A DNA stretch of 38,221 nt from a virus (taxonomy: Duplodnaviria > Heunggongvirae > Uroviricota > Caudoviricetes), in the IMG/VR virus record IMGVR_UViG_2565956731_000004, positions 1 through 38,221 of that record; one strand, 5' to 3'. Positions 5,463-36,996 of the stretch are shown in pieces (positions within the stretch are counted from its first letter, which is position 1; each line of letters starts with the position of its first letter). The notes under the pieces were generated by a model that searched no databases, was not told the DNA's origin, and saw only the letters and a program-made list of their open reading frames with translations. A program made the translations under genes and the position numbers.

Positions 5463-8285
5463 ATGACGGCAGAGTACATCAGGGACTGGCAACAACCGCG
5501 CCACGCAGTGGGGCGTGAAGGAACGGGGATCCCCGCTCCTGAATCCGCGCTTTCCTCCTGGCTGGATGCCTACCGGGTAGAGAACGAGCGCCGCCAGGAA
5601 ATGGCTGATGCGGCATTCTCCGCAACGCCGCTGGGCAACCTGATTAATAAAAGCCTGGACGCACAGGAAAAACAGGACAAAACCATCACACTGGCAAGAG
5701 ACGCCAGAAAACAGGCACGCGGCGCGGTGGATGAAGCCATGGCCTCGCTGCGCCTGCTGCCGTCCTATCTGCGCGATCCGCTTATTCGCCACCTCTCCTT
5801 CCTGCGCAAAAAACAGGAAGCCGATCGTCAGAAAGGCAAAAAGAGCTGGCAGGCAGAACGATATGCGCGCGGAACCCTGCGCAGGATATTCGAACGTCTG
5901 GACCGCACCGACACTCGCTGGCTGACACCGGCTTATCGCTCTCTTGCCGGACGTGAACGCCTGGATGATTTGCTTTACCTGCCGCAGCTCAACAAACACC
6001 AGATACAGACGCTGGCCACCATGACGGCGGCGATGTTCAGCAGCACTTTCGAAACACTCTGCGATAACTTTGGCGCGACCGATGGCGAGCTGACCATGAA
6101 AATCGCGCTGAAGGCGTATCAGATGCTGGCCCGCATGGCGTTACATCTGCACACCATGCCGCCGCATTACGAAGCACTGAGAACGGACAAAGACCGGAAG
6201 AACGCACCGGATACGGAGCTGCTGCCGGGGGCCATCCTTCGCCTGACCTGTGCGGAATGGTGGAAACGCAAACTGTGGCTGTTGCGTTGCGAGTGGCGGG
6301 AAGAACAACTCCGCGCCGCCTGTCTGGTTTCCAGAAAAACATCAGCCTATCTGAGCCAGGACGCGTTAAGCGAGTTTCGCGCACAGCGCGAGAAAACACG
6401 CGACTTCCTGAAAAGTTTCATGCTGGAAAACGAAGACGGATTCACGATTGATCTCGAGACAGTGTATTACGCAGGCGTCAGTAACCCGGTTCACCGTAAG
6501 GCAGAAATGATGGCCACCATGAAGGGGTTGGAACTTCTGGCCGAAGCCCGTGGCGACAAAGCGGTGTTTCTGACTGTCACCTGCCCGTCAAAATACCACG
6601 CAACAACGGAGAACGGTCATCCGAATCCCAGATGGAACGGGGCCACCATGCGCGACTCCAGCGATTACCTTGTTAACACGTTTTTTGCGGCGGTCCGCAA
6701 GAAACTGAACCGTGAGAAATTGCGCTGGTATGGCATCCGCACGGCGGAGCCACACCATGACGGCACGGTGCACTGGCATATGATGGTTTTTGCGCATCCG
6801 GATGAAATAGACACCATTGTGTCCCACGTCCGCGATATTGCCATTCAGGAAGACCGCCACGAGCTGGGTGATGACATAACCCCGCGCTTTGAGGCGGAGT
6901 ACGTCGACGGCTCAAAAGGCACACCGACCAGCTACATCGCCACCTACATCGGAAAAAACCTGGACAGCCGCGCCGTGGATGGCATCGACCCGAAAACGGG
7001 CAAGCCACGCGTTGACCACGAAACCGGAAAATCAATGGCCGAGAGCGTGGAGCGCGCCATCGGCTGGGCGCGCCTTCACCGGGTCCGCCAGTTCCAGTTC
7101 TTTGGTATCCCCTCCCGCCAGGTCTGGCGTGAACTGCGCCGCCTTGCCAGCCAGATGGCACGCAATCCGGGAGGCCCGCAACGTCTGGAAAATGACGCAA
7201 TGGACGCGGTACTCGCTGCCGCTGATGCCGGGTGTTTTGCCACCTACATTGAGAAACAGGGCGGCGTACTTGTTCCACGCAAAGACTACCTGATTCGCAC
7301 CGCCTACAACCTCGCAGATGAACTGAACGATTACGGCGAACAGAGCGTACAGATTTACGGGATCTGGTCGCCGCTCATCGGGGAGTCTTCCCGTGTGTGC
7401 ACGCACCCGGATAACTGGAAGCTGGTAAGACGTAAACCGGAAGCGGAAGACAGTGCCCACGAAAATGGTTTTGACCTTCAGGGCGGCCCTGCCGCCCCTT
7501 GGACTCGTGGCAATAACTGTCCCCGTGTACAGGAAACGGACAACAACGGGACAGAACAGCCGGAAGAACGGCCAGCACCGTGGCCGCAGCTTCCTGACGG
7601 CATTGAAGTGAACGAATGGATGCGCTCACTGAAACGGCACGAACGCCGGGCGCTGATGCGTTCGCTGCGTGACAAACAGGCCAAAAACAGCAGTGATGAA
7701 ATGCAGAGCTGGACACAGAGCCGCAAACAGCCGCGGCCTTTGCCTGATAACCACGAATTACTCGCTAAAGAATGGCGGGAGTCTGCTGAATCTCTCGGAC
7801 TGCATATTGGTGAACAGCAGATGCAGCACCTGTTACGGGGCGGCAGTCTGTACGTTGACGGCAGCATCATTGCACCGCAGGGATTTGAAATTGTACGCAA
7901 ACCGGATACCCGCCCGGACAGCCGAATCACGCAGCTCTGGCAGCGCCTGAGCCGTAATCACGGCGTAAGCAGCACGGAGATCCGCCATAACCCGGTCGCC
8001 AGCTATCTGGAACAGCTGGGGGCATCAGACCCTGAAGCCGCCACACGCCTGGCATCCACACTTCAGCAGGACCAGAACACCATGAAAACACCCGTTACCG
8101 TGCTTTCTGACATGCTGCGCGCCATCCGCGACGCAGAGCACGCACAGAGAATCAGTGAAACCACTGAACGTGCCCGCCGCAAAGCAGACCTGCTGCGGAG
8201 TGGCCTGACCAGTGGAAACAAAAAACAGACAGAAACGGGATTCACAAATCCCGTAAATGAGCAAAAAACGCGCCGCGATATATGA
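5463..8285 (+). CDS. A: replication initiation endonuclease (P2 gene A-like, HUH rolling-circle initiator) with long C-terminal extension
   Basis: 940 aa; HUH motif HWHMMVF and catalytic tyrosine pair SYIATYIGKN; from memory, about 180 aa longer than P2 A at the C-terminus. Confidence 0.9.
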   Translation: MTAEYIRDWQQPRHAVGREGTGIPAPESALSSWLDAYRVENERRQEMADAAFSATPLGNLINKSLDAQEKQDKTITLARDARKQARGAVDEAMASLRLLPSYLRDPLIRHLSFLRKKQEADRQKGKKSWQAERYARGTLRRIFERLDRTDTRWLTPAYRSLAGRERLDDLLYLPQLNKHQIQTLATMTAAMFSSTFETLCDNFGATDGELTMKIALKAYQMLARMALHLHTMPPHYEALRTDKDRKNAPDTELLPGAILRLTCAEWWKRKLWLLRCEWREEQLRAACLVSRKTSAYLSQDALSEFRAQREKTRDFLKSFMLENEDGFTIDLETVYYAGVSNPVHRKAEMMATMKGLELLAEARGDKAVFLTVTCPSKYHATTENGHPNPRWNGATMRDSSDYLVNTFFAAVRKKLNREKLRWYGIRTAEPHHDGTVHWHMMVFAHPDEIDTIVSHVRDIAIQEDRHELGDDITPRFEAEYVDGSKGTPTSYIATYIGKNLDSRAVDGIDPKTGKPRVDHETGKSMAESVERAIGWARLHRVRQFQFFGIPSRQVWRELRRLASQMARNPGGPQRLENDAMDAVLAAADAGCFATYIEKQGGVLVPRKDYLIRTAYNLADELNDYGEQSVQIYGIWSPLIGESSRVCTHPDNWKLVRRKPEAEDSAHENGFDLQGGPAAPWTRGNNCPRVQETDNNGTEQPEERPAPWPQLPDGIEVNEWMRSLKRHERRALMRSLRDKQAKNSSDEMQSWTQSRKQPRPLPDNHELLAKEWRESAESLGLHIGEQQMQHLLRGGSLYVDGSIIAPQGFEIVRKPDTRPDSRITQLWQRLSRNHGVSSTEIRHNPVASYLEQLGASDPEAATRLASTLQQDQNTMKTPVTVLSDMLRAIRDAEHAQRISETTERARRKADLLRSGLTSGNKKQTETGFTNPVNEQKTRRDI
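8233..8257. repeat. 25-bp repeat with internal palindrome ACGGGATT-N4-AATCCCGT (copy 1, inside the 3' end of A)
   Basis: aaacgggattcacaaatcccgtaaa; second copy 73 bp downstream. Confidence 0.7.
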
Positions 8286-8305
8286 AGCGCACACAAAACA
8301 GGCAA

Positions 8306-8330
8306 AAACGGGATTTCAGAATCCCGTAAA
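8306..8330. repeat. 25-bp repeat with internal palindrome (copy 2, upstream of the parM-like gene)
   Basis: aaacgggatttcagaatcccgtaaa; flanks the presumed promoter of the parM-like operon; candidate centromere or operator site. Confidence 0.7.
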
Positions 8331-8361
8331 CGATTAATTAATCAACATAAGGAAAAGCGAC

Positions 8362-9321
8362 ATGAAAATTTGTATCGACGACGGCTCCACCAACATCAAG
8401 CTGGCATGGACTGAGAACAGCGAACGCCGCAACGCCATCAGCCCGAACAGCTTCAAGTCGGAATGGTCTGCGCCGTTCGGTGGCTCGCAGCCTGCGAACT
8501 ACATGCTTGATGGCGTGCGCTATGGTTTTGATCCGGTCAGCGATCGCTTTGTCCAGACGACCGACACGCAATACCAGTACAGCGATGTGAATGTAATCGC
8601 CATTCACCACGCGCTGGTCAAATCAGGCATCACACCACAGGAGGTGGATGTGGTTGTCACCCTGCCACTGAGCGAGTATTTCGACACAAACGCACAGCCG
8701 GACATGGCCAACATCAACCGCAAAAAAGCAAACGTCATGCGCCCGGTGGAGTACCAGAACGGCGAAGCATTCACTATCCGTAACGTGCGGGTTATGCCTG
8801 AATCCATTCCGGCTGGCTTTAAGGCACTGGCTGACATGAGTCCGTTTGAATCCCTGCTGATTGTGGATTTAGGCGGAACCACGCTGGATGTGGCAAAGGT
8901 CCAGGGACAACTGGCAGGTATCAGCCAGGTGTTTTGCGATCCACACGTAGGCGTTTCCCTGATGGCCGATGCCGTACTGTCGGTGATGGCCACTAACGGT
9001 ATGCGTACCAGTCACCATATCGCCAATACCATTATCGAACATCGCCACGATGAAGCCTGGCTGCGCCAGCACATCCACAATGACGCGCATTACGACAGCC
9101 TGATGGCGGTTATTCGTGAAAAGGAAGAAACACTGAAACAACGAGTGATCCGCGCGCTGGCGGGTTTTTCGGGTTACGGGCGGGTGATGGTTGTCGGTGG
9201 CGGGGCGGAGATTGTGGCACCCGCTATCCGCGAAGCCTGCGGAGTTAATGCGACTTTCATCGCGGACGGGGTGCCACAGTTTGCTCTGGTTAATGGGCTG
9301 TACGCAATGGACAAGGAGTAA
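8362..9321 (+). CDS. actin-like ATPase, ParM/StbA family
   Basis: 319 aa; N-terminus MKICIDDGSTNIKLAW...ISPNSFK...YQYSDVNVIAIHHAL closely parallels the recalled plasmid R1 ParM N-terminus (MLVFIDDGSTNIKLQW...SPNSFK...WQYSDVNVVAVHHAL); glycine-rich VDLGGTT and VVGGGA motifs. Confidence 0.8.
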   Translation: MKICIDDGSTNIKLAWTENSERRNAISPNSFKSEWSAPFGGSQPANYMLDGVRYGFDPVSDRFVQTTDTQYQYSDVNVIAIHHALVKSGITPQEVDVVVTLPLSEYFDTNAQPDMANINRKKANVMRPVEYQNGEAFTIRNVRVMPESIPAGFKALADMSPFESLLIVDLGGTTLDVAKVQGQLAGISQVFCDPHVGVSLMADAVLSVMATNGMRTSHHIANTIIEHRHDEAWLRQHIHNDAHYDSLMAVIREKEETLKQRVIRALAGFSGYGRVMVVGGGAEIVAPAIREACGVNATFIADGVPQFALVNGLYAMDKE

Positions 9322-9325
9322 ACCA

Positions 9326-9637
9326 ATGACGACACCAACCAGACGGATAAGTTTCTATCTGAAGCCCGCCGCCGTCAAGAACGAAGGCGAAGCATGCGCC
9401 TGGCTGGACAGCCTTACACCAGAAGCCCGCAAAAGCGGCCAACGTGTGGCTTTTCTGGCCGGGCTGGCACTTCTGAAAATGAATCCGGCAGAGGCTTACC
9501 GACTGGCTGCATGGGCTGACGATGAGGCGTTATCAGTGACACAAACCAGGACAGAACGCCCCGCGTCACAGCCAGTACCAACCTCACAGATAACCAGTCG
9601 GATGGCCGGAAATATCAGGGCGTTATTTCCCGAATAA
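9326..9637 (+). CDS. ParR-like small DNA-binding adaptor
   Basis: 103 aa from the ATG 4 nt after the parM-like stop (AAGGAG RBS); RRISFYLKP...LDSLTPEARKSGQRVAFLAGLALL...IRALFPE resembles the recalled R1 ParR pattern (RRTIAFKLNP...LDSIP...AALTAGLAL...LRSLFPKE). Confidence 0.6.
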   Translation: MTTPTRRISFYLKPAAVKNEGEACAWLDSLTPEARKSGQRVAFLAGLALLKMNPAEAYRLAAWADDEALSVTQTRTERPASQPVPTSQITSRMAGNIRALFPE

Positions 9638-9642
9638 CACAA

Positions 9643-9666
9643 CATCAGGGCGCATCCGCCCTGATG
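9643..9666 (+). other. perfect 10-bp-stem hairpin between the parR-like gene and the next cassette
   Basis: catcagggcg-catc-cgccctgatg; a third copy of ATCAGGGCG at 9614..9622 inside the parR-like 3' end; no T-run follows, so not a canonical terminator. Confidence 0.5.
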
Positions 9667-9700: not shown

Positions 9701-10033
9701 ATGCAACACATTGACAGAGAAAAAGCGCAGCGACTGATTGAGCGGATGGAAGCGCTGGCGAAAGAAGAAAATGTCAACATCCAAAAAATAGCTGAATGTG
9801 GCCAGATAGTTCTTCGTCGTGAAAAAGACCTCAAACAACTGATGTCTGGCGAAACCAGCAAAACATGGACTTCAGGCGAGGAGACGATTTATTGCAGCTT
9901 CTGCAATAAATCTCAGTACGAAGTCACAAAGGTGATTGCCGGACCGTCTGTTTGCATCTGCAATGAGTGCGTGGATTTGTGCAATGAAATTATCAGGAGA
10001 GAAGTGACAGACAAAAAGGGAAAAAACGCATGA
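9701..10033 (+). CDS. protein with C-terminal ClpX-type C4 zinc-binding domain
   Basis: 110 aa; C-terminal [34 protein letters not shown] is near-identical in pattern to the E. coli ClpX N-terminal domain ([34 protein letters not shown]); about 60 aa of unrelated N-terminal sequence; AAGGGGGA RBS. Confidence 0.7.
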
Positions 10034-10368
10034 ACAGAAAACAAAAACAAGAGTTGAAATACTTTTTACGTAAAGAAATTGCCAGGCTTGAAGATGCAGA
10101 ATCACAATCATCAGAAATTCCGTTCGGAATGGATATCAACGACGCCCGTATGCTCCAGGCATACCGCATAGCTCAGGCTGCACTACAGGCAAAACCGTCA
10201 GATGGACTGGTTAGAGCAGTACGATTCTATGAACTGGTAAAGCGTGAGAATCCGCCAGCCGAAACCGGAGCATGGAAAGACGCTGTTGACTGGGTACTCA
10301 AAGAGGCTTGTCAGGTTGTAAACACTGGCATCAAAGGAGACCTAGCCCAGCCTGCATCAAAGCTATAG
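10030..10368 (+). CDS. hypothetical protein translationally coupled to the ClpX-zinc-finger-domain protein
   Basis: 112 aa; ATGA overlap with upstream gene; followed by an intrinsic terminator. Confidence 0.55.
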
Positions 10369-10379
10369 AAATGAGCCAA

Positions 10380-10406
10380 AACGCCCTCTTCCAGGGCGTT
10401 TATTTC
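10380..10406 (+). terminator. intrinsic terminator closing the cargo operon
   Basis: AACGCCCT-cttcc-AGGGCGTT followed by a T-rich tract, 12 nt after the stop. Confidence 0.7.
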
Positions 10407-10860: not shown

Positions 10861-11907
10861 TCAGGATGTGGGCTGGGTGTCTAACAGTGCGTAAGGGTTA
10901 AAGCGGATCACCTCTTCGCCAAGCCAGTCATTGATGTGCTTCATGGCCTCCATAACGGGCATCAGCTCGTTAATTGCGTAAACCCGCGCTGCCTTCTCCA
11001 CATCACCAAACGCACTTTTTTCGCCCGGCATCGCCCCCATCAGTTGCGGCGGAACGCGGTGCGCAGCCAGCACATCATCACGGGATGCCGCCTTAACATT
11101 CATGAACTCATCCTTTGCGGTGATCTGCTGGAACGGCAAAATTTGCACCCCCTCTTTGCCCCCGTTGGGCGCATGAATGAGCACGTTTTTAAACGCACCA
11201 CCACCACGTGCACCCTGTAGCGTTTCTTTCAGGGAGTCCATGCTTTCGCGGTTTACCTGCGCTGCACCGATGTAGATGATGCACCCGGCGTGGGATCCGT
11301 TGTCGTAATACAGTTTTCTGAACATGTCCGCCGAATGAGACAGGCTGGCCGAGAGTAATGCGCCAAGATATTCCGGCATGCCGTAGATTTCCTGGTTAAT
11401 GTCAGGATTCATCAGGTGGCACACTTTGCCAGGGCGAAACTGAAACGCATCCTTGCCATCCTGCACATACCACCATGATTCAAGATCGCTTCCGCGTCGC
11501 ATGTATTTCGCCAGGGCGTGCCGTAATTTAAGCGGTTCGCCGAGCATATTGCTTCGAAGCTCAAGGAATGCGTTACCGAACACAAACCAGTCCAGCGCCA
11601 GCGCCGAAAAATCCTGCCGGGAAAGCAGCGGGTGCGGAATATAGCAACCGAGCAATACATTGCGCTTAAAGTAAAGCGCAGACTGATGCCAGGACGTTTG
11701 CCGGGCGGCTCTTGCCAGACCGTACCAGTCCACCGGGGTTTCATACCACCGCCCGTTATCAGCACAGTACATATTGTCCAGCAGGTCATGCCCGGTCAGG
11801 CGATAAGGACCATCAAATGTGAATGCACTGAGCGACGATTCTTTCCTGAGCGCATCAGCGAGATCAATGCGTGAACTCATGCGCACTTTTTTATTTTTTC
11901 TGCTCAT
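10861..11907 (-). CDS. Q: portal protein (P2 gpQ-like)
   Basis: 348 aa; size, position and leftward orientation paired with the large terminase as in P2. Confidence 0.85.
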   Translation of the reverse strand: MSRKNKKVRMSSRIDLADALRKESSLSAFTFDGPYRLTGHDLLDNMYCADNGRWYETPVDWYGLARAARQTSWHQSALYFKRNVLLGCYIPHPLLSRQDFSALALDWFVFGNAFLELRSNMLGEPLKLRHALAKYMRRGSDLESWWYVQDGKDAFQFRPGKVCHLMNPDINQEIYGMPEYLGALLSASLSHSADMFRKLYYDNGSHAGCIIYIGAAQVNRESMDSLKETLQGARGGGAFKNVLIHAPNGGKEGVQILPFQQITAKDEFMNVKAASRDDVLAAHRVPPQLMGAMPGEKSAFGDVEKAARVYAINELMPVMEAMKHINDWLGEEVIRFNPYALLDTQPTS

Positions 11908-24242: not shown

Positions 24243-24770
24243 ATGATGCATTTAAAAAACATTAAAGCAGGGAACCCAAAAACACCTGAACAATACCAGT
24301 TAACCAAAAAAGCTGGAGTGGTCTGGCTTTATACTGAAGATGGTAAAAACTGGTACGAAGAACAAAAAAACTTTCAACCAGATACTATAAAAATTGCATA
24401 CGATAAAAATAATGTGATTGTTACCGTAAGCAAAGATGTTTCAACTATTAACCCGGAAGGTTTAAGTGTTGTTGAAGTATCCGATATTACGGCAAATCGT
24501 CGCGCAGACAATAACGGAAACTGGATGTTTCTGGATGGTAAAGTAGTAAAGCGGGAATATACAAAACAGGAGCTGCAACAGCAGGCAGAGTTACAAAAAG
24601 CCACTTTGCTTTCCGAAGCGGAGTCTGTGATTCAACCGCTGGAACGTGCTGTCAGGCTGAATATGGCAACTAATGAGGAACGCGCACGACTGGAGTCATG
24701 GGAACGCTACAGTGTTCTGGTCAGCCGTGTGGATACGGCAAATCCTGAATGGCCACAAAAGCCTGAATAA
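24243..24770 (+). CDS. G: tail fibre assembly chaperone (P2 gpG-like), currently expressed copy
   Basis: 175 aa immediately after H; N-terminal half nearly identical to the inverted copy. Confidence 0.8.
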
Positions 24771-24775
24771 AAATT

Positions 24776-24795
24776 AAGGCCCGATAGCGGGCCTT
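24776..24795. terminator. bidirectional hairpin between the convergent chaperone genes
   Basis: AAGGCCCG-atag-CGGGCCTT. Confidence 0.6.
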
Positions 24796-24798
24796 GTC

Positions 24799-25332
24799 TC
24801 ATTCTGGTTGTTCCGGGAATGTTACAGGAAGAACAGAGGTATCTGTGACATCAACCTGCTGCATGTATAACATCCAGTTAATGAGTCTTTGCCTGTCTGA
24901 ATCGCTGATAATTCCCAGCGCAAGCTGTGTTTGCCAGCACTGCGTTTCCTCTCTGGCCTGTCGCAGCAAAATCTGTTTCTGAATTTCAGCCAGTTGACGT
25001 AGTTCTTCATCAGTCCGGGGGCGTTTCATGACCTTGCCATCCTGAAACACCCAGTCACCGAGAATATCGGCCCGGCGATTCGCTGTCGTGTCGGGTAATT
25101 CGACAACGCTCATTCCTTCCGGGTTAATAGACGACACATCTTTTTCAATATAGCGAATGATACCTCTGTCATCGTAAGCGATTTTTAGTGTGTCTGCCTG
25201 AAAGGCTTTTTGTGCCTCATACCAGTTCTGACCATCTTCAGCGTAAAGCCAGATAACACCATGTCTCTTTGTTAACTCATACTGTTCCAGTGTTTTAGCA
25301 TTACCCGCTTTTATGTTCTTTAAGTGCATCAT
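24799..25332 (-). CDS. alternative tail fibre assembly chaperone (G'), silent orientation
   Basis: 177 aa; [11 protein letters not shown]... N-terminus shared with G, divergent C-terminal half. Confidence 0.75.
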   Translation of the reverse strand: MMHLKNIKAGNAKTLEQYELTKRHGVIWLYAEDGQNWYEAQKAFQADTLKIAYDDRGIIRYIEKDVSSINPEGMSVVELPDTTANRRADILGDWVFQDGKVMKRPRTDEELRQLAEIQKQILLRQAREETQCWQTQLALGIISDSDRQRLINWMLYMQQVDVTDTSVLPVTFPEQPE

Positions 25333-25333
25333 A

Positions 25334-26233
25334 TTAAACGCTCGCTACATTATACCAGGTGCCATTTATATACTTTTGAACGGGTCTGTAATAAACGCCC
25401 GCTATATTATCGGCAGAGTTGGACCCTGTATCCTGAACATTAATACCAGACAATACATGACCTGACGGGCACTGGAAATTCCATGTTTGCCAGTTGTTCA
25501 CACCATGATATTGCTGTGAACCAAGACGAACATCTTTCACATAGCGGGAATCAAAATTCCCCCAGTTACTGGGTTGTATCTGACCGTTAACAGCAAATAT
25601 TACTGAGTTATCTGTATTTCGCTGACTATAGAAATGCCAGCCTGAATCATCACCAAGCTCTGCAACAGTTGGTCTTGATGAAGTGCCCCATAAATTAAAC
25701 CCTACGTTCTTCGTGGAGTTGTTGGAGCTGGATAGCGTGAATTTTTTACCATCCCCAGCCTGAATATTTTTAAAAGCAATAGCCACTCCATTCTGAAAGC
25801 GGAATACACGCTGACTATTAGCATAAACATCAAGAATACCGTCTCCATTCTGTTTAAATCCGGTATCATTATCACCAAGAACAATAGAGCTACCACCTAA
25901 CGCATTCGTCGTACCGATCCCCACACTGCCATTAATGACAGCATTAACAAGAATATTTAGTGCATCCCATTTCAGCGTCATCAGATCTTTTGTTGTGGTA
26001 CTTTGTTTGCTTCTCCATTTGAAATATTCATTGCCGTTGTCGCCTGTTTCAAACCACATGTATGAATCAGTATCGCTGTCGGCATCATTTTTAAATCCAA
26101 TCTTTGCCCAGTCAGTATTTCGAATCCAGGCAAGGATTGAGTCGTTTTCAAAAGTAAGTCCACCGGACAAGGTATCGCCTGTCTTTTGAACGGCGTTAGC
26201 AGCCTTGTTTACCGTTTCCTGTAAACCGAGGTT
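25334..26233 (-). CDS. alternative tail-fibre variable C-terminal segment (H'), no own start, silent orientation
   Basis: Open frame runs from the right crossover site; begins ...[31 protein letters not shown], which matches the H constant-variable junction ([17 protein letters not shown]); shares LGG-SI-LGDNDTG-KQ-GDG motif with the expressed variable part. Confidence 0.75.
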   Translation of the reverse strand, partial: NLGLQETVNKAANAVQKTGDTLSGGLTFENDSILAWIRNTDWAKIGFKNDADSDTDSYMWFETGDNGNEYFKWRSKQSTTTKDLMTLKWDALNILVNAVINGSVGIGTTNALGGSSIVLGDNDTGFKQNGDGILDVYANSQRVFRFQNGVAIAFKNIQAGDGKKFTLSSSNNSTKNVGFNLWGTSSRPTVAELGDDSGWHFYSQRNTDNSVIFAVNGQIQPSNWGNFDSRYVKDVRLGSQQYHGVNNWQTWNFQCPSGHVLSGINVQDTGSNSADNIAGVYYRPVQKYINGTWYNVASV

Positions 26234-26241
26234 TTAGATAA
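26216..26241. other. DNA-invertase crossover site (hix/gix/cix-like), right
   Basis: TTCCTGTAAACC-GA-GGTTTTAGATAA; inverted partner of 23202..23227. Confidence 0.8.
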
Positions 26242-26295
26242 TGGCCGTTTCCGGCCTGCATGGCATGATTTGCGCTTTTGGACGGGAGATTCAGC

Positions 26296-33768: not shown

Positions 33769-33879
33769 GCGATTTGGAGATATTAAATCAAACATGAGTA
33801 AATATTACCAATAACAGAGTGTACTTATTGGATGTATAGTTCTTTCATTTTTTAGGAGAAATTAAGAAAATTAACTCAA

Positions 33880-33911
33880 TGTGCACCTTATAAAGGCGCA
33901 CACTTTGTTTT
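33880..33911. terminator. bidirectional hairpin between D and the ParA-like gene
   Basis: TGTGCACC-ttataaa-GGCGCACA followed by a T-rich run; perfect with one G-U pair on the minus-strand transcript. Confidence 0.55.
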
Positions 33912-33916
33912 GCATG

Positions 33917-34975
33917 TTAAAAATTATTTATTATGTGTTCAGCTAAATGATCATACTCACCAGCCATCTCATTCATTAGTTCTACCTGATTAACTGCCCA
34001 TTGCCCCCGCCCACGAAGAGCATTCGTTGGCCTAACTCGAGACAAATAGCGAATAGGTATATTTTGAATAATACTATCAGGAGCCATAACGTTGAGGTCC
34101 TCAATCTTTCCAACTGGTTCATAATCAGTAAAATCAGGAACCGCGTTGTAAGATGAAATCTGTGAAAGCTGAGGAAGCATTTTTTCCTCTATCGCTTTTC
34201 TTATTGAACGGTGATGAACTGCATCTGCACCAACCTCTTGTTTAACATCATTTTGCTTTCTCGTATCAAAACCATTGAATATCCAACCGCCAAATTTAGG
34301 CATCCCTTTCTGAGATATAATATTATCTCGTGGGTTACCTGATAGATATCTTTCCTTGCCCTGCTCCCAATCACGTATAAATGATGGCAACATCTCACCA
34401 ATCAGCCCTACACAATATGAAGAGAATAAATCAGGTGTGCATGGAACTAAAAAATAGTCCGAACAGTACAATGACGATCTAACAAGCGTATTGAATGAGG
34501 GAGGTAAATCTATTAGGACATAATCATAAATAACATCATTTTTCTCTGATGCTTTTTTTGTTATCAAATCTGGCAAAATAAAACGATATAACCCTGCGCC
34601 ACTTATAACATCAGTGCCGACATTTAAAATATCTGAAAATGTATTAAGCCAAAAGTCTCCAGGAACAATATGCAAAACGCCTGCATCTGTCTTAGTCTTA
34701 GGTTCTGTTGTATAAACTTCACCTATAGTATTTTGTTGTATGTAAGGCAATGCAAATGCTTTAACCGTTTTTCCAAAAGGGAAATCATCTGAAGGTTCCA
34801 ATAACTCTGAAAATTCCTCATCACCAATACATGCAATTGAGAGATTACACTGGGGATCAAAGTCTATTAATAAAACACTTTTTCCTTTATCTGCTAGCGA
34901 TACTGCAAGATTCCAAATTATAGTTGTTTTACCAACACCACCTTTGTTATTAAAAATCGATATAGTTTTTGTCAT
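33917..34975 (-). CDS. ParA/MinD-family P-loop ATPase with about 100-aa C-terminal extension, AT-rich gene
   Basis: 352 aa; deviant Walker A KGGVGKTT near the N-terminus; LLIDFDPQCN and DYVLIDLPP motifs; flanked by AT-rich intergenic DNA; composition clearly AT-richer than the tail genes. Confidence 0.8.
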   Translation of the reverse strand: MTKTISIFNNKGGVGKTTIIWNLAVSLADKGKSVLLIDFDPQCNLSIACIGDEEFSELLEPSDDFPFGKTVKAFALPYIQQNTIGEVYTTEPKTKTDAGVLHIVPGDFWLNTFSDILNVGTDVISGAGLYRFILPDLITKKASEKNDVIYDYVLIDLPPSFNTLVRSSLYCSDYFLVPCTPDLFSSYCVGLIGEMLPSFIRDWEQGKERYLSGNPRDNIISQKGMPKFGGWIFNGFDTRKQNDVKQEVGADAVHHRSIRKAIEEKMLPQLSQISSYNAVPDFTDYEPVGKIEDLNVMAPDSIIQNIPIRYLSRVRPTNALRGRGQWAVNQVELMNEMAGEYDHLAEHIINNF

Positions 34976-35234
34976 TTACAACCCTTATTTCAGTGAAATT
35001 TTCGTTGAGAATCAGCATTTGTTTTTTTGCATAAACCACAATTCAACTTTGAGATTAACACAAGCCTTATTGTTATACATTAAAATCCTACTCAAATGAC
35101 ATCATTGAGATACTCATGTAATTTATTCGCCACGACAAAGCCTACTTCAGTGACTTGCTCAAAGCGGAGTTGCTGTTGGAATCTGAGTTGGGGCAACTTA
35201 GAATGGTGGCAGCACCACGTTAAGGGAGGTCGCT

Positions 35235-35686: not shown

Positions 35687-35827
35687 ATGTCGCAAAAATC
35701 GCTTACGGCCATCACGTTCTGCGTGACGGTAATCCTCATCATCTGGATGCTGCACGGTTCGCTGTGTGAAATACGGATGAGCTTCTGGGGAGCGGAGTTT
35801 GCGGCGTTCTTACAGTGTAAGCAGTAA
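35687..35827 (+). CDS. Hok/Gef-family type I toxin (46 aa)
   Basis: MSQKSLTAITFCVTVILIIWMLHGSLCEIRMSFWGAEFAAFLQCKQ; single TM helix plus SLCE and AAFL motifs as in recalled HokA; AAGGAG RBS; below the ORF-track size cut-off. Confidence 0.6.
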   Translation: MSQKSLTAITFCVTVILIIWMLHGSLCEIRMSFWGAEFAAFLQCKQ

Positions 35828-36018: not shown

Positions 36019-36062
36019 TTGTTATCATATCGGCAGCAGTAACCACACAAGAGGTGCCGCAA

Positions 36063-36260
36063 ATGACGCAAAATGTACGATGCAAAAATTGCAACAAACT
36101 ACTTGCCCGCGCCTCATTTCACTACATTGAAATAAAATGTCCGCGCTGCAAAACACTTAACCAGATAACGAGAGCCATTGAGCCCCCCACACACATGAGG
36201 AGTTATGACCGTGGGGATCGCAATCCAGCACCAACCAGCACATACACCGGAACACACTAA
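36063..36260 (+). CDS. Com-like zinc-ribbon protein (Mu Com family)
   Basis: About 65 aa from the ATG at 36063 (AAGAGG RBS); VRCKNCNKLLARASFHYIEIKCPRCKTLN matches recalled Mu Com (IRCKNCNKLLFKA...HIEIRCPRCK); 3' end overlaps the methyltransferase start by 56 nt. Confidence 0.6.
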   Translation: MTQNVRCKNCNKLLARASFHYIEIKCPRCKTLNQITRAIEPPTHMRSYDRGDRNPAPTSTYTGTH

Positions 36261-36996
36261 GGTTTATCAGACTGACAATGCCACGCTCTGTCGTGGGAAT
36301 GCGCTGGAAATATTGCCGCTGATTGAGCCAGAAAGTATTGATGCCTTAATCACTGACCCGCCTTACAGTTCGGGCGCGACACACAAGGCCGGACGCACCA
36401 ACCAGGGCAGCCACGCAAAATATCTGAACGGCGAGAACCTTCATCGCTTTGATGGGTTTGCGGGTGAAAACATGGATGCCCGTTCGTGGGCTTACTGGAC
36501 ACAATTATGGATGGCACAGGCACACCGCGCAGTCAGGCCGGGCGGTTATGCCCTGGTATTTACTGACTGGCGACAACTGCCAGCTTTAACCGATGCGTTT
36601 CAGGCCAGCGGTTTTACATGGCGTGGAATCATTGCGTGGAACAAAGGAAGGGGGTCACGAACACCCCATACGGGGTATTTCCGGCATCAGTGCGAATACA
36701 TCGTCTGGGGCAGTAAAGGCCATTTAGGTAAATCGCCTTCGGGACCGTTCGACGGCTGCATGACGTTCCCGGTTATCCCATCAAAGAAAATGCACCCGAC
36801 CGGAAAACCAGAAGAACTTATGGCAGAACTGGTCAGGACTGCGAATAGTGGTGGAACAGTCCTTGATCCTTTTATGGGATCGGGAACAACGGGTGTTGCA
36901 GCACTGAAAGCAGGGCGCAAATTTATTGGTATAGAAACCAGTGATCATTATTTTGATATAGCAACACAACGGCTCAAAACGGCGATCGAACCATAA
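36205..36996 (+). CDS. DNA methyltransferase (N6-adenine/N4-cytosine class, DPPY motif)
   Basis: 263 aa; catalytic DPPY (LITDPPYSS) near the N-terminus and AdoMet motif DPFMGSGTTG near the C-terminus; GAGG RBS. Confidence 0.85.
   Translation: MTVGIAIQHQPAHTPEHTKVYQTDNATLCRGNALEILPLIEPESIDALITDPPYSSGATHKAGRTNQGSHAKYLNGENLHRFDGFAGENMDARSWAYWTQLWMAQAHRAVRPGGYALVFTDWRQLPALTDAFQASGFTWRGIIAWNKGRGSRTPHTGYFRHQCEYIVWGSKGHLGKSPSGPFDGCMTFPVIPSKKMHPTGKPEELMAELVRTANSGGTVLDPFMGSGTTGVAALKAGRKFIGIETSDHYFDIATQRLKTAIEP

Follow-up and report, generated by a model that had tools for sequence, protein, structure and literature searches.

The 38,221-nucleotide stretch of DNA analysed here (IMG/VR record IMGVR_UViG_2565956731_000004; called the window below) is a P2-family prophage with an integrase, C repressor, cox, replication gene A, structural genes, ogr, hok and a Com-regulated methyltransferase gene reaching to ~37.0 kb, in which gene A is followed by a two-gene cassette, parM and parR, with a pair of palindrome-containing repeats upstream (Table 1). 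The cassette is almost certainly a type II (ParMRC) partition module, and comparison with its relatives indicates that it is part of the phage backbone, at the A-proximal edge of a hotspot whose swappable cargo begins after parR. On balance we favour the view that it is a bona fide DNA-segregation module of the P88-like backbone which acts on the circular phage genome; that its specific role would be to segregate a transient phage episome, a proposal made by analogy, has in our estimate an even chance of being correct.

Annotation and literature have both registered the cassette before, and the E. coli prophage family that carries it is very common. In the RefSeq genome of Escherichia phage P88 (NC_026014) the two genes are labelled 'plasmid segregation protein ParM' and 'partition protein', PHROGs families exist for ParM and for ParR, and Rousset et al. 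2022 (PMC9122126) reported that the A-Q hotspot of about a quarter of E. coli P2-like phages contains a putative plasmid partitioning system, with StbA plus Plasmid_stab_B arrangements between gpA and gpQ in their supplementary table. That system is the same as the cassette in the window, and the paper devotes one sentence to it, with no analysis or test; an earlier note on this DNA, which knew of no described P2-hotspot system of this composition, was therefore mistaken. The linkage to P88-type A, the deep synteny, the candidate binding sites and the analysis of selection are what is added here beyond that paper. Elsewhere, the gene counts as a 'fitness' factor in the phiSM paper (PMC6456863), a 2026 study of P2 and P4 hotspots makes no mention of the cassette, a paper entitled 'Bacterial genome-encoded ParMs' makes no mention of phages, and no functional study of the cassette was found in the literature.

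P88 aligns to window positions 2145-35948 with 85-97% identity over most of that length, and nucleotide similarity together with shared gene order places the prophage in the Peduoviridae genus Xuanwuvirus (P88-like). The cassette itself is 98.3% identical to that of P88.

The ParM-ParR pair and the repeats upstream

ParM is recognisable as a ParM/StbA actin-like ATPase over its entire length, as the earlier note had proposed. The Pfam profiles StbA_N (7.8e-82) and ParM C-terminal domain (9.9e-69) cover it end to end, and a PDB search matches residues 2-316 to ParM of plasmid R1 (1mwk and others) with an E-value of 2.8e-92. Four motifs, all of which align with R1 ParM, show no variation among relatives as distant as 53% identity: DDGST (residues 6-10; phosphate-1), PES (146-148; the catalytic glutamate), DLGGTT (169-174; phosphate-2) and GGGA (279-282; adenosine). 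The gene appears to be under strong purifying selection, with a ratio of nonsynonymous to synonymous substitution rates (dN/dS) of 0.05-0.14 against seven relatives.

The small protein that follows had been described as ParR-like, and this is borne out by a match to Pfam Plasmid_stab_B (StbB, which is ParR) at 1.6e-24. A PDB search with the single ParR sequence gave no meaningful match; a profile built from nine ParR homologues matches the ribbon-helix-helix (RHH) protein ParR/StbB of pB171 (2jd3) with an E-value of 2.3e-14. The alignment of these homologues shows an invariant N-terminal strand, R-[RK]-I-x-F-Y-L-x-P (RRISFYL in the window), two helices, a variable linker and a conserved tail. 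The tail, NIRALFPE, has N96 and F101 invariant in all nine homologues, and by its resemblance to the C-terminus of R1 ParR, which we take to be KKNAMKLIN, it is a putative tail of the ParM-binding type. The dN/dS of parR is 0.3-0.5, with changes mostly in the linker. A single-sequence AlphaFold model of ParR (pLDDT, the predicted local distance difference test score, 49) contained helices only and no beta-strand, as expected for the monomer of a dimeric RHH fold, and was too poor to be used.

The two genes were thought to be translationally coupled. The parR ATG lies 4 nt past the parM stop codon and an AAGGAG is present within the end of parM, which makes tight coupling plausible, although the genes do not overlap. 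All parts of the cassette lie where they had been placed, apart from an implied parR start that is one base off from the ATG at 9326.

At least three ParR alleles occur in this family (window 9326-9637; locus L002 6965-7276; locus L009 4127-4438). They have in common codons 1-17, which encode the DNA-reading strand, and the C-terminal tail motif, and are ~55% identical in between; the breakpoint lies near window position 9380, parM and the dyads are unchanged, and an allele other than that of the window is present in roughly half of the E. coli copies.

The presence of palindrome-containing direct repeats upstream of parM is confirmed. The repeat is 43 nt long, its two copies are 81% identical and 73 bp apart, and each copy holds a perfect 8+4+8 palindrome (a 20-bp dyad) of the form ACGGGATT-N4-AATCCCGT, the first of which falls within the last codons of gene A. 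A search of the 38 kb window allowing up to three mismatches finds these two matches only, where shuffled sequences give an expectation of 0.05. The GGG-N10-CCC cores of the two dyads lie at -125 and -52 relative to the parM ATG in the window, at -131 and -59 in Plesiomonas and at -128 and -55 in Hafnia, such that a core spacing of 72-73 bp is retained in all three while the ten inner bases and the rest of the spacer have diverged. In the Plesiomonas elements the interior is no longer self-complementary and the GGG/CCC ends are kept, so that what is conserved is a spaced dyad, as opposed to a hairpin in RNA or DNA. In Serratia and Enterobacter, where the ParR strand has RK and not RR, the repeats are different, with inverted arms of 14-20 nt and 26-28 nt between them, and a plasmid-derived locus and a locus in an integrative and conjugative element (ICE) have many short iterons or other repeats. 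A recombinant E. coli prophage whose A gene is of another kind still has a remnant of the P88-type A end, starting 17 nt ahead of site 1, and parMR after it. The uniqueness of the dyads, the comparison of distant loci and this recombinant boundary together make the dyads good candidates for ParR sites, serving as centromere (parC), operator or both.

The palindromes could instead be hairpins or terminators for leftward transcription, or the leftover of a duplication, and not a centromere at all. Both do resemble minus-strand terminators, each having an 8-bp stem and a T-rich tail, and leftward transcription of the late genes Q and P heads for this region. Nonetheless we consider this very unlikely, given that Plesiomonas has lost the hairpin potential and kept the GGG/CCC ends and the dyad spacing, and that a stronger minus-strand hairpin at 9643-9666 and a bidirectional terminator-like hairpin at ~10376-10402, the latter between Q and the region, are already present.

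Between site 2 and the parM ribosome-binding site is a further short motif, ATTAATCAA, whose core ATTAAT is invariant in E. coli, Plesiomonas and Hafnia in a spacer that has otherwise diverged, the flanking CAA being shifted by one base in E. coli. To judge by its sequence it may be a -10-like element; a consensus promoter scan of the A-to-parM interval called zero sigma-70 promoters. The parMR genes are on the same strand as A and a terminator scan finds no plus-strand terminator between A and parM, an arrangement that fits expression with the early replication operon.

A backbone module at the edge of the A-Q hotspot

The gene order in the window is A, parM, parR, two cargo open reading frames (ORFs) and Q, and the A-Q interval is the location used by P2 hotspot systems. 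The earlier note correctly recognised this as the position at which P2 has tin and old, and supposed that the cassette is variable cargo of the same kind; that second part fares less well. In a survey of 5,426 complete E. coli genomes the cassette was found in 1,304 (24%), among them O157:H7, ST131 and other pathogen lineages, and P88-type A genes in 1,443. A probe for the A-parM junction was covered over at least 80% of its length in 1287 of the 1372 E. coli genomes with any match (~94%). By contrast, the 1.2 kb that follows parR has the arrangement of the window in only 83 of the 5,426 genomes, although the last 450 bp beside Q are common to most, and the stretch separating the parR stop codon from the conserved block beside Q measures between 538 and 2,074 bp in 56 IMG/VR relatives, with many length classes. 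Base composition divides at the same point: GC content is 58% in A, 55% in parM and 56% in parR (GC at third codon positions 0.65, 0.65 and 0.54 respectively) as against 44-46% in the two downstream ORFs, and the cassette matches the phage backbone in this respect.

The arrangement also extends beyond E. coli. In P2-like prophages of Plesiomonas, Hafnia, Serratia and Enterobacter a ParM-ParR pair follows A, or follows A plus one or two small genes, with ParM identities to the window of 62% in Plesiomonas and Hafnia, 58% in Serratia and 53% in Enterobacter. In these other genera too the pair is followed by cargo (a 226-aa ORF, small ORFs, HicAB, a KAP NTPase) and then by the portal gene. Below ~52% ParM identity the contexts turn into plasmids and an ICE, and in a phage collection of 50,697 records R1-type ParM occurs in Xuanwuvirus-type phages and in the phage-plasmid D6 (47.5%) only. 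The distant relatives were obtained by protein search and contig look-ups, a one-protein scan of GTDB having returned three near-identical loci only; the IMG/VR scan returned only loci 98-100% identical and served for the allele and cargo statistics, not for covariation.

Taken together, the junction linkage, synteny across five genera, GC content and selection on parM point to an old, lineage-specific part of one P2-like branch. Rapid turnover, a trait of P2 hotspot defence systems, is not seen in the cassette and is seen in the segment after parR. The locus therefore comes close to the conserved core that had been named as the finding that would speak against cargo, falling short of it in that the cassette is absent from most P2-like lineages and replaced by IetAS in a few P88-type prophages. 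Hotspot-based defence discovery in the P88-like lineage can thus pass over the A-proximal part of the interval as backbone and look for novel defence genes from the end of parR onwards.

One P88-type A gene without the cassette is found in E. coli E06 (NZ_CM143910.1; locus L006, 6710-11279), where A is followed by IetA (1e-77) and an IetS-like S8 peptidase, with no parMR; the IetS-like gene is broken by an IS5-family element. The presence of IetAS after P88-type A in this strain indicates that a defence system can take over the slot.

This substitution and the location of the cassette inside a P2 defence hotspot (PMC9122126) are the grounds for supposing that parMR itself interferes, by way of its filament or centromere, with phages or plasmids that enter the cell. 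We regard such a role as highly improbable. PADLOC has no match for either ParM or ParR (E <= 0.1), leaving the proposed defence or counter-defence function unsupported, and the GC content is that of the backbone. Low turnover and deep synteny contrast with the rapid swapping reported for defence loci (PMC13586616). Plasmid ParM proteins are at most 52% identical to that of the window among the matches listed and a tblastn search of plasmids with ParR found no plasmid ParR, which makes centromere-based incompatibility with known plasmids unlikely. Moreover, the likely expression of the cassette with the early operon would silence it in the lysogen.

The variable A-Q cargo of the window, at 9701-10368, consists of a gene for a 110-aa ClpX-type C4 zinc finger protein (2.9e-16) and an ORF of 112 aa that overlaps it and matches no Pfam family. 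An assembly named 'Vagococcus sp. WN89Y' (NZ_JBQPOM010000071.1) contains a locus with 97% identity to the prophage region; this Firmicute-labelled locus likely reflects contamination or mislabelling.

Chromosomal state and the possible role of the cassette

Of 1452 places at which the cassette occurs in the complete E. coli genomes, 1450 are chromosomal, and an integrase is present at all loci examined. PLSDB (72,556 plasmids) contains one phage-sized circular record, and its six other matches are to large replicons or to a fragment. ParM matches of at least 95% identity occur in six records of the plasmid collection, all of them carrying the phage element itself, and the remaining plasmid ParM matches are below 60% identity, 52% being the highest among the matches listed. 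The phage-sized record, NZ_CP148288.1, is a complete circular P88-like genome of 34,461 bp from an E. coli isolate from a cat, deposited as a plasmid, with an intact integrase, parMR, hok and all structural genes; the same integrase type is chromosomal in 308 genomes. It could be a true episome, or an excised or replicating form caught by the assembly. Compared with the phage-plasmids P1, N15, SSU5 and D6, the P88-like phages have the partition system and lack the extrachromosomal maintenance, and a stable plasmid lifestyle is not the norm for them.

A phage-plasmid lifestyle, in which P88-like phages persist as stable low-copy plasmids with ParMRC and hok as their maintenance kit, was suggested by Rousset et al. 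2022 (PMC9122126) and was among the possibilities raised by the earlier note. The circular record is in keeping with it, as is the fact that the sole other sequenced phage with such a ParM is the phage-plasmid D6. The stability loci of plasmid R1 are parMRC and hok/sok, and homologues of both are found in this prophage. We nevertheless judge it unlikely, since nearly all E. coli copies are chromosomal, a single phage-sized circle is found among all PLSDB plasmids and may itself be an excised or replicating form from assembly, its integrase type is otherwise chromosomal, and every locus examined keeps an integrase.

The module resembles the R1 ParMRC system (parA locus) in the order of repeats, parM and parR, in the full-length ParM match with all nucleotide-binding motifs, and in a ParR of the same Pfam family with an RHH N-terminus and a similar C-terminal tail. 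It differs in being located in an integrating tailed phage, in a shorter ParR (103 versus 117 aa) that lacks the middle helix region, in a candidate centromere of two dyads 73 bp apart where R1 parC has ten 11-bp iterons, and in a ParM that falls into a distinct clade, no more than 52% identical to plasmid copies among the matches listed. The ParM/StbA of D6, a P1-like phage-plasmid, is likewise of R1 type (47.5% identity), but D6 is a 91-kb extrachromosomal element and the P88-like phages integrate. A Dickeya chromosome (locus L015, 6001-7373) has a ParM/ParR pair, 48% identical, beside TraG_N/TraU conjugation genes and an integrase; this locus is an ICE, and hence another integrating element with an R1-type partition module.

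The closest functional precedent is srpMRC, a type II partition system of the SXT/R391 ICEs, which stabilises the transient excised, rolling-circle-replicated form of the element and lowers element loss (PMC4489591). As with the cassette in the window, this is a type II partition system on a normally chromosomal element, in that case with a four-repeat centromere arranged in pairs and a toxin-antitoxin system alongside. SrpM and SrpR are, however, distant from R1 ParM and ParR whereas the window ParM is close, the carrier is an ICE and not a phage, and the function of srpMRC is proven (PMC4489591) whereas that of the window cassette is predicted.

On the reading that we favour, segregation of the circular phage genome, ParR dimers would bind the two dyads (GGG-N10-CCC core) directly upstream of parM, the first of them inside the end of A; the dyads are seven helical turns apart and both would thus lie on one face of the helix. 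ParM-ATP filaments would be captured or capped by way of the conserved ParR C-terminal tails, and as they grow would push sister circular phage genomes apart. The substrate would be an extrachromosomal circle, present after infection until integration or else after excision, from the point at which the A endonuclease has raised its copy number above one. Each daughter cell would then keep a copy, with more lysogens and fewer losses of the excised element as the benefit, and the hok toxin of the prophage may serve as a back-up. Action on a transient circle would extend to tailed phages the idea, derived from SXT/R391 ICEs, of integrated elements that manage an extrachromosomal phase. A stronger formulation is that P88-like phages rely on an R1-type machine, with a two-dyad centromere partly within A, to distribute A-replicated circles, and together with hok behave as facultative episomes; we offer this only tentatively, and if true it would be the first demonstrated role of type II partition in the life cycle of an integrating tailed Enterobacteria phage.

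Several observations weigh against segregation as the function. There are two dyads only, which may act mainly as an operator. Within the E. coli-type relatives the sites are well kept, yet no better than their flanks, and an arm of site 2 is mutated from CCC to CCT in at least 13 of 78 IMG/VR copies. About 6% of P88-type A genes do not have the cassette next to them, such that the module is dispensable in a minority, and three quarters of P2-like phages lack it (PMC9122126). Partition is useless to a single unreplicated circle, and the timing of expression is deduced from gene order only.

The actin-like ATPase AlpC and its adaptor AlpA of the Corynebacterium glutamicum prophage CGP3 offer a different model. 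This pair, in which the adaptor binds upstream, acts on circular phage DNA after induction (PMC4446434), and by the same token the P88-like filament might position or spread replicating phage DNA after induction with no role in inheritance. AlpAC is prophage-encoded, induced early, binds upstream of its own operon and is needed for efficient phage replication (PMC4446434), and the position of parMR directly after A, on the same strand and with no plus-strand terminator between, would suit such a function. AlpC, however, is a divergent actin-like protein of an actinobacterial host, with a reported role in efficient replication and not in inheritance (PMC4446434), whereas the window ParM is closely related to a proven segregation motor (R1; E 2.8e-92). 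Members of the lineage without parMR also exist, and sequence data do not discriminate between an AlpAC-like role and episome segregation. Overall we find a purely lytic organiser rather doubtful.

Other features of the prophage

Coordinates of the cassette and of the neighbouring features are given in Table 1. Beyond the hairpin at the end of the cassette the similarity among relatives collapses, and sequence after 9640 is variable among E. coli genomes. A 19-mer taken as P2 cos has no match in the window.

Table 1. Positions of the cassette, its candidate sites and other features in the window.
Feature	Position	Strand	Description
Integrase	1-1020	minus	Left edge of window
Gene A	5463-8285	plus	940 aa; Phage_GPA, E 1e-127
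Direct repeat, copy 1	8218-8260	plus	Candidate ParR site 1: palindrome ACGGGATTCACAAATCCCGT (8235-8254), within the 3' end of A
Direct repeat, copy 2	8291-8333	plus	Candidate ParR site 2 is the palindrome ACGGGATTTCAGAATCCCGT at 8308-8327
ATTAATCAA motif	8337-8345	plus	Between site 2 and the parM ribosome-binding site
parM	8362-9321	plus	Actin-like segregation ATPase, 319 aa
parR	9326-9637	plus	Predicted ribbon-helix-helix centromere-binding adaptor, 103 aa
Hairpin	9643-9666		10-bp stem, GC-rich, at cassette end; terminator-like on minus strand only
Bidirectional terminator-like hairpin	~10376-10402		Between Q and cassette region
Portal gene Q	10861-11907	minus	Interval A-Q holds the cassette
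hok/gef-family toxin gene	35687-35827	plus	Pfam HOK_GEF 3.7e-7; outside the cassette

The hok gene is a possible partner stability function for the cassette, and P88 and the plasmid-form record NZ_CP148288.1 have it annotated as well. It lies beyond ogr at the right prophage end and adjoins a segment at 36054-36996 with a gene for a Mu Com-like zinc ribbon protein, overlapped by one for an N6 DNA methyltransferase.

Between tail gene D and ogr the window has a 1.4-kb insertion (33770-35177; 35% GC) that P88 lacks. Its ORF at 33917-34975, on the minus strand, codes for a solitary ParA/Soj-type ATPase (AAA_31, 8.8e-30) that weakly matches the candidate defence model PDC-M28B (6.6e-8), and the insertion is probably accessory cargo at a second hotspot. 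In the tail-fibre region (24248-26245) a part is inverted relative to P88 (25962-26245 against P88 24105-23822), near the DNA invertase gene of P88, which fits an invertible host-range segment.

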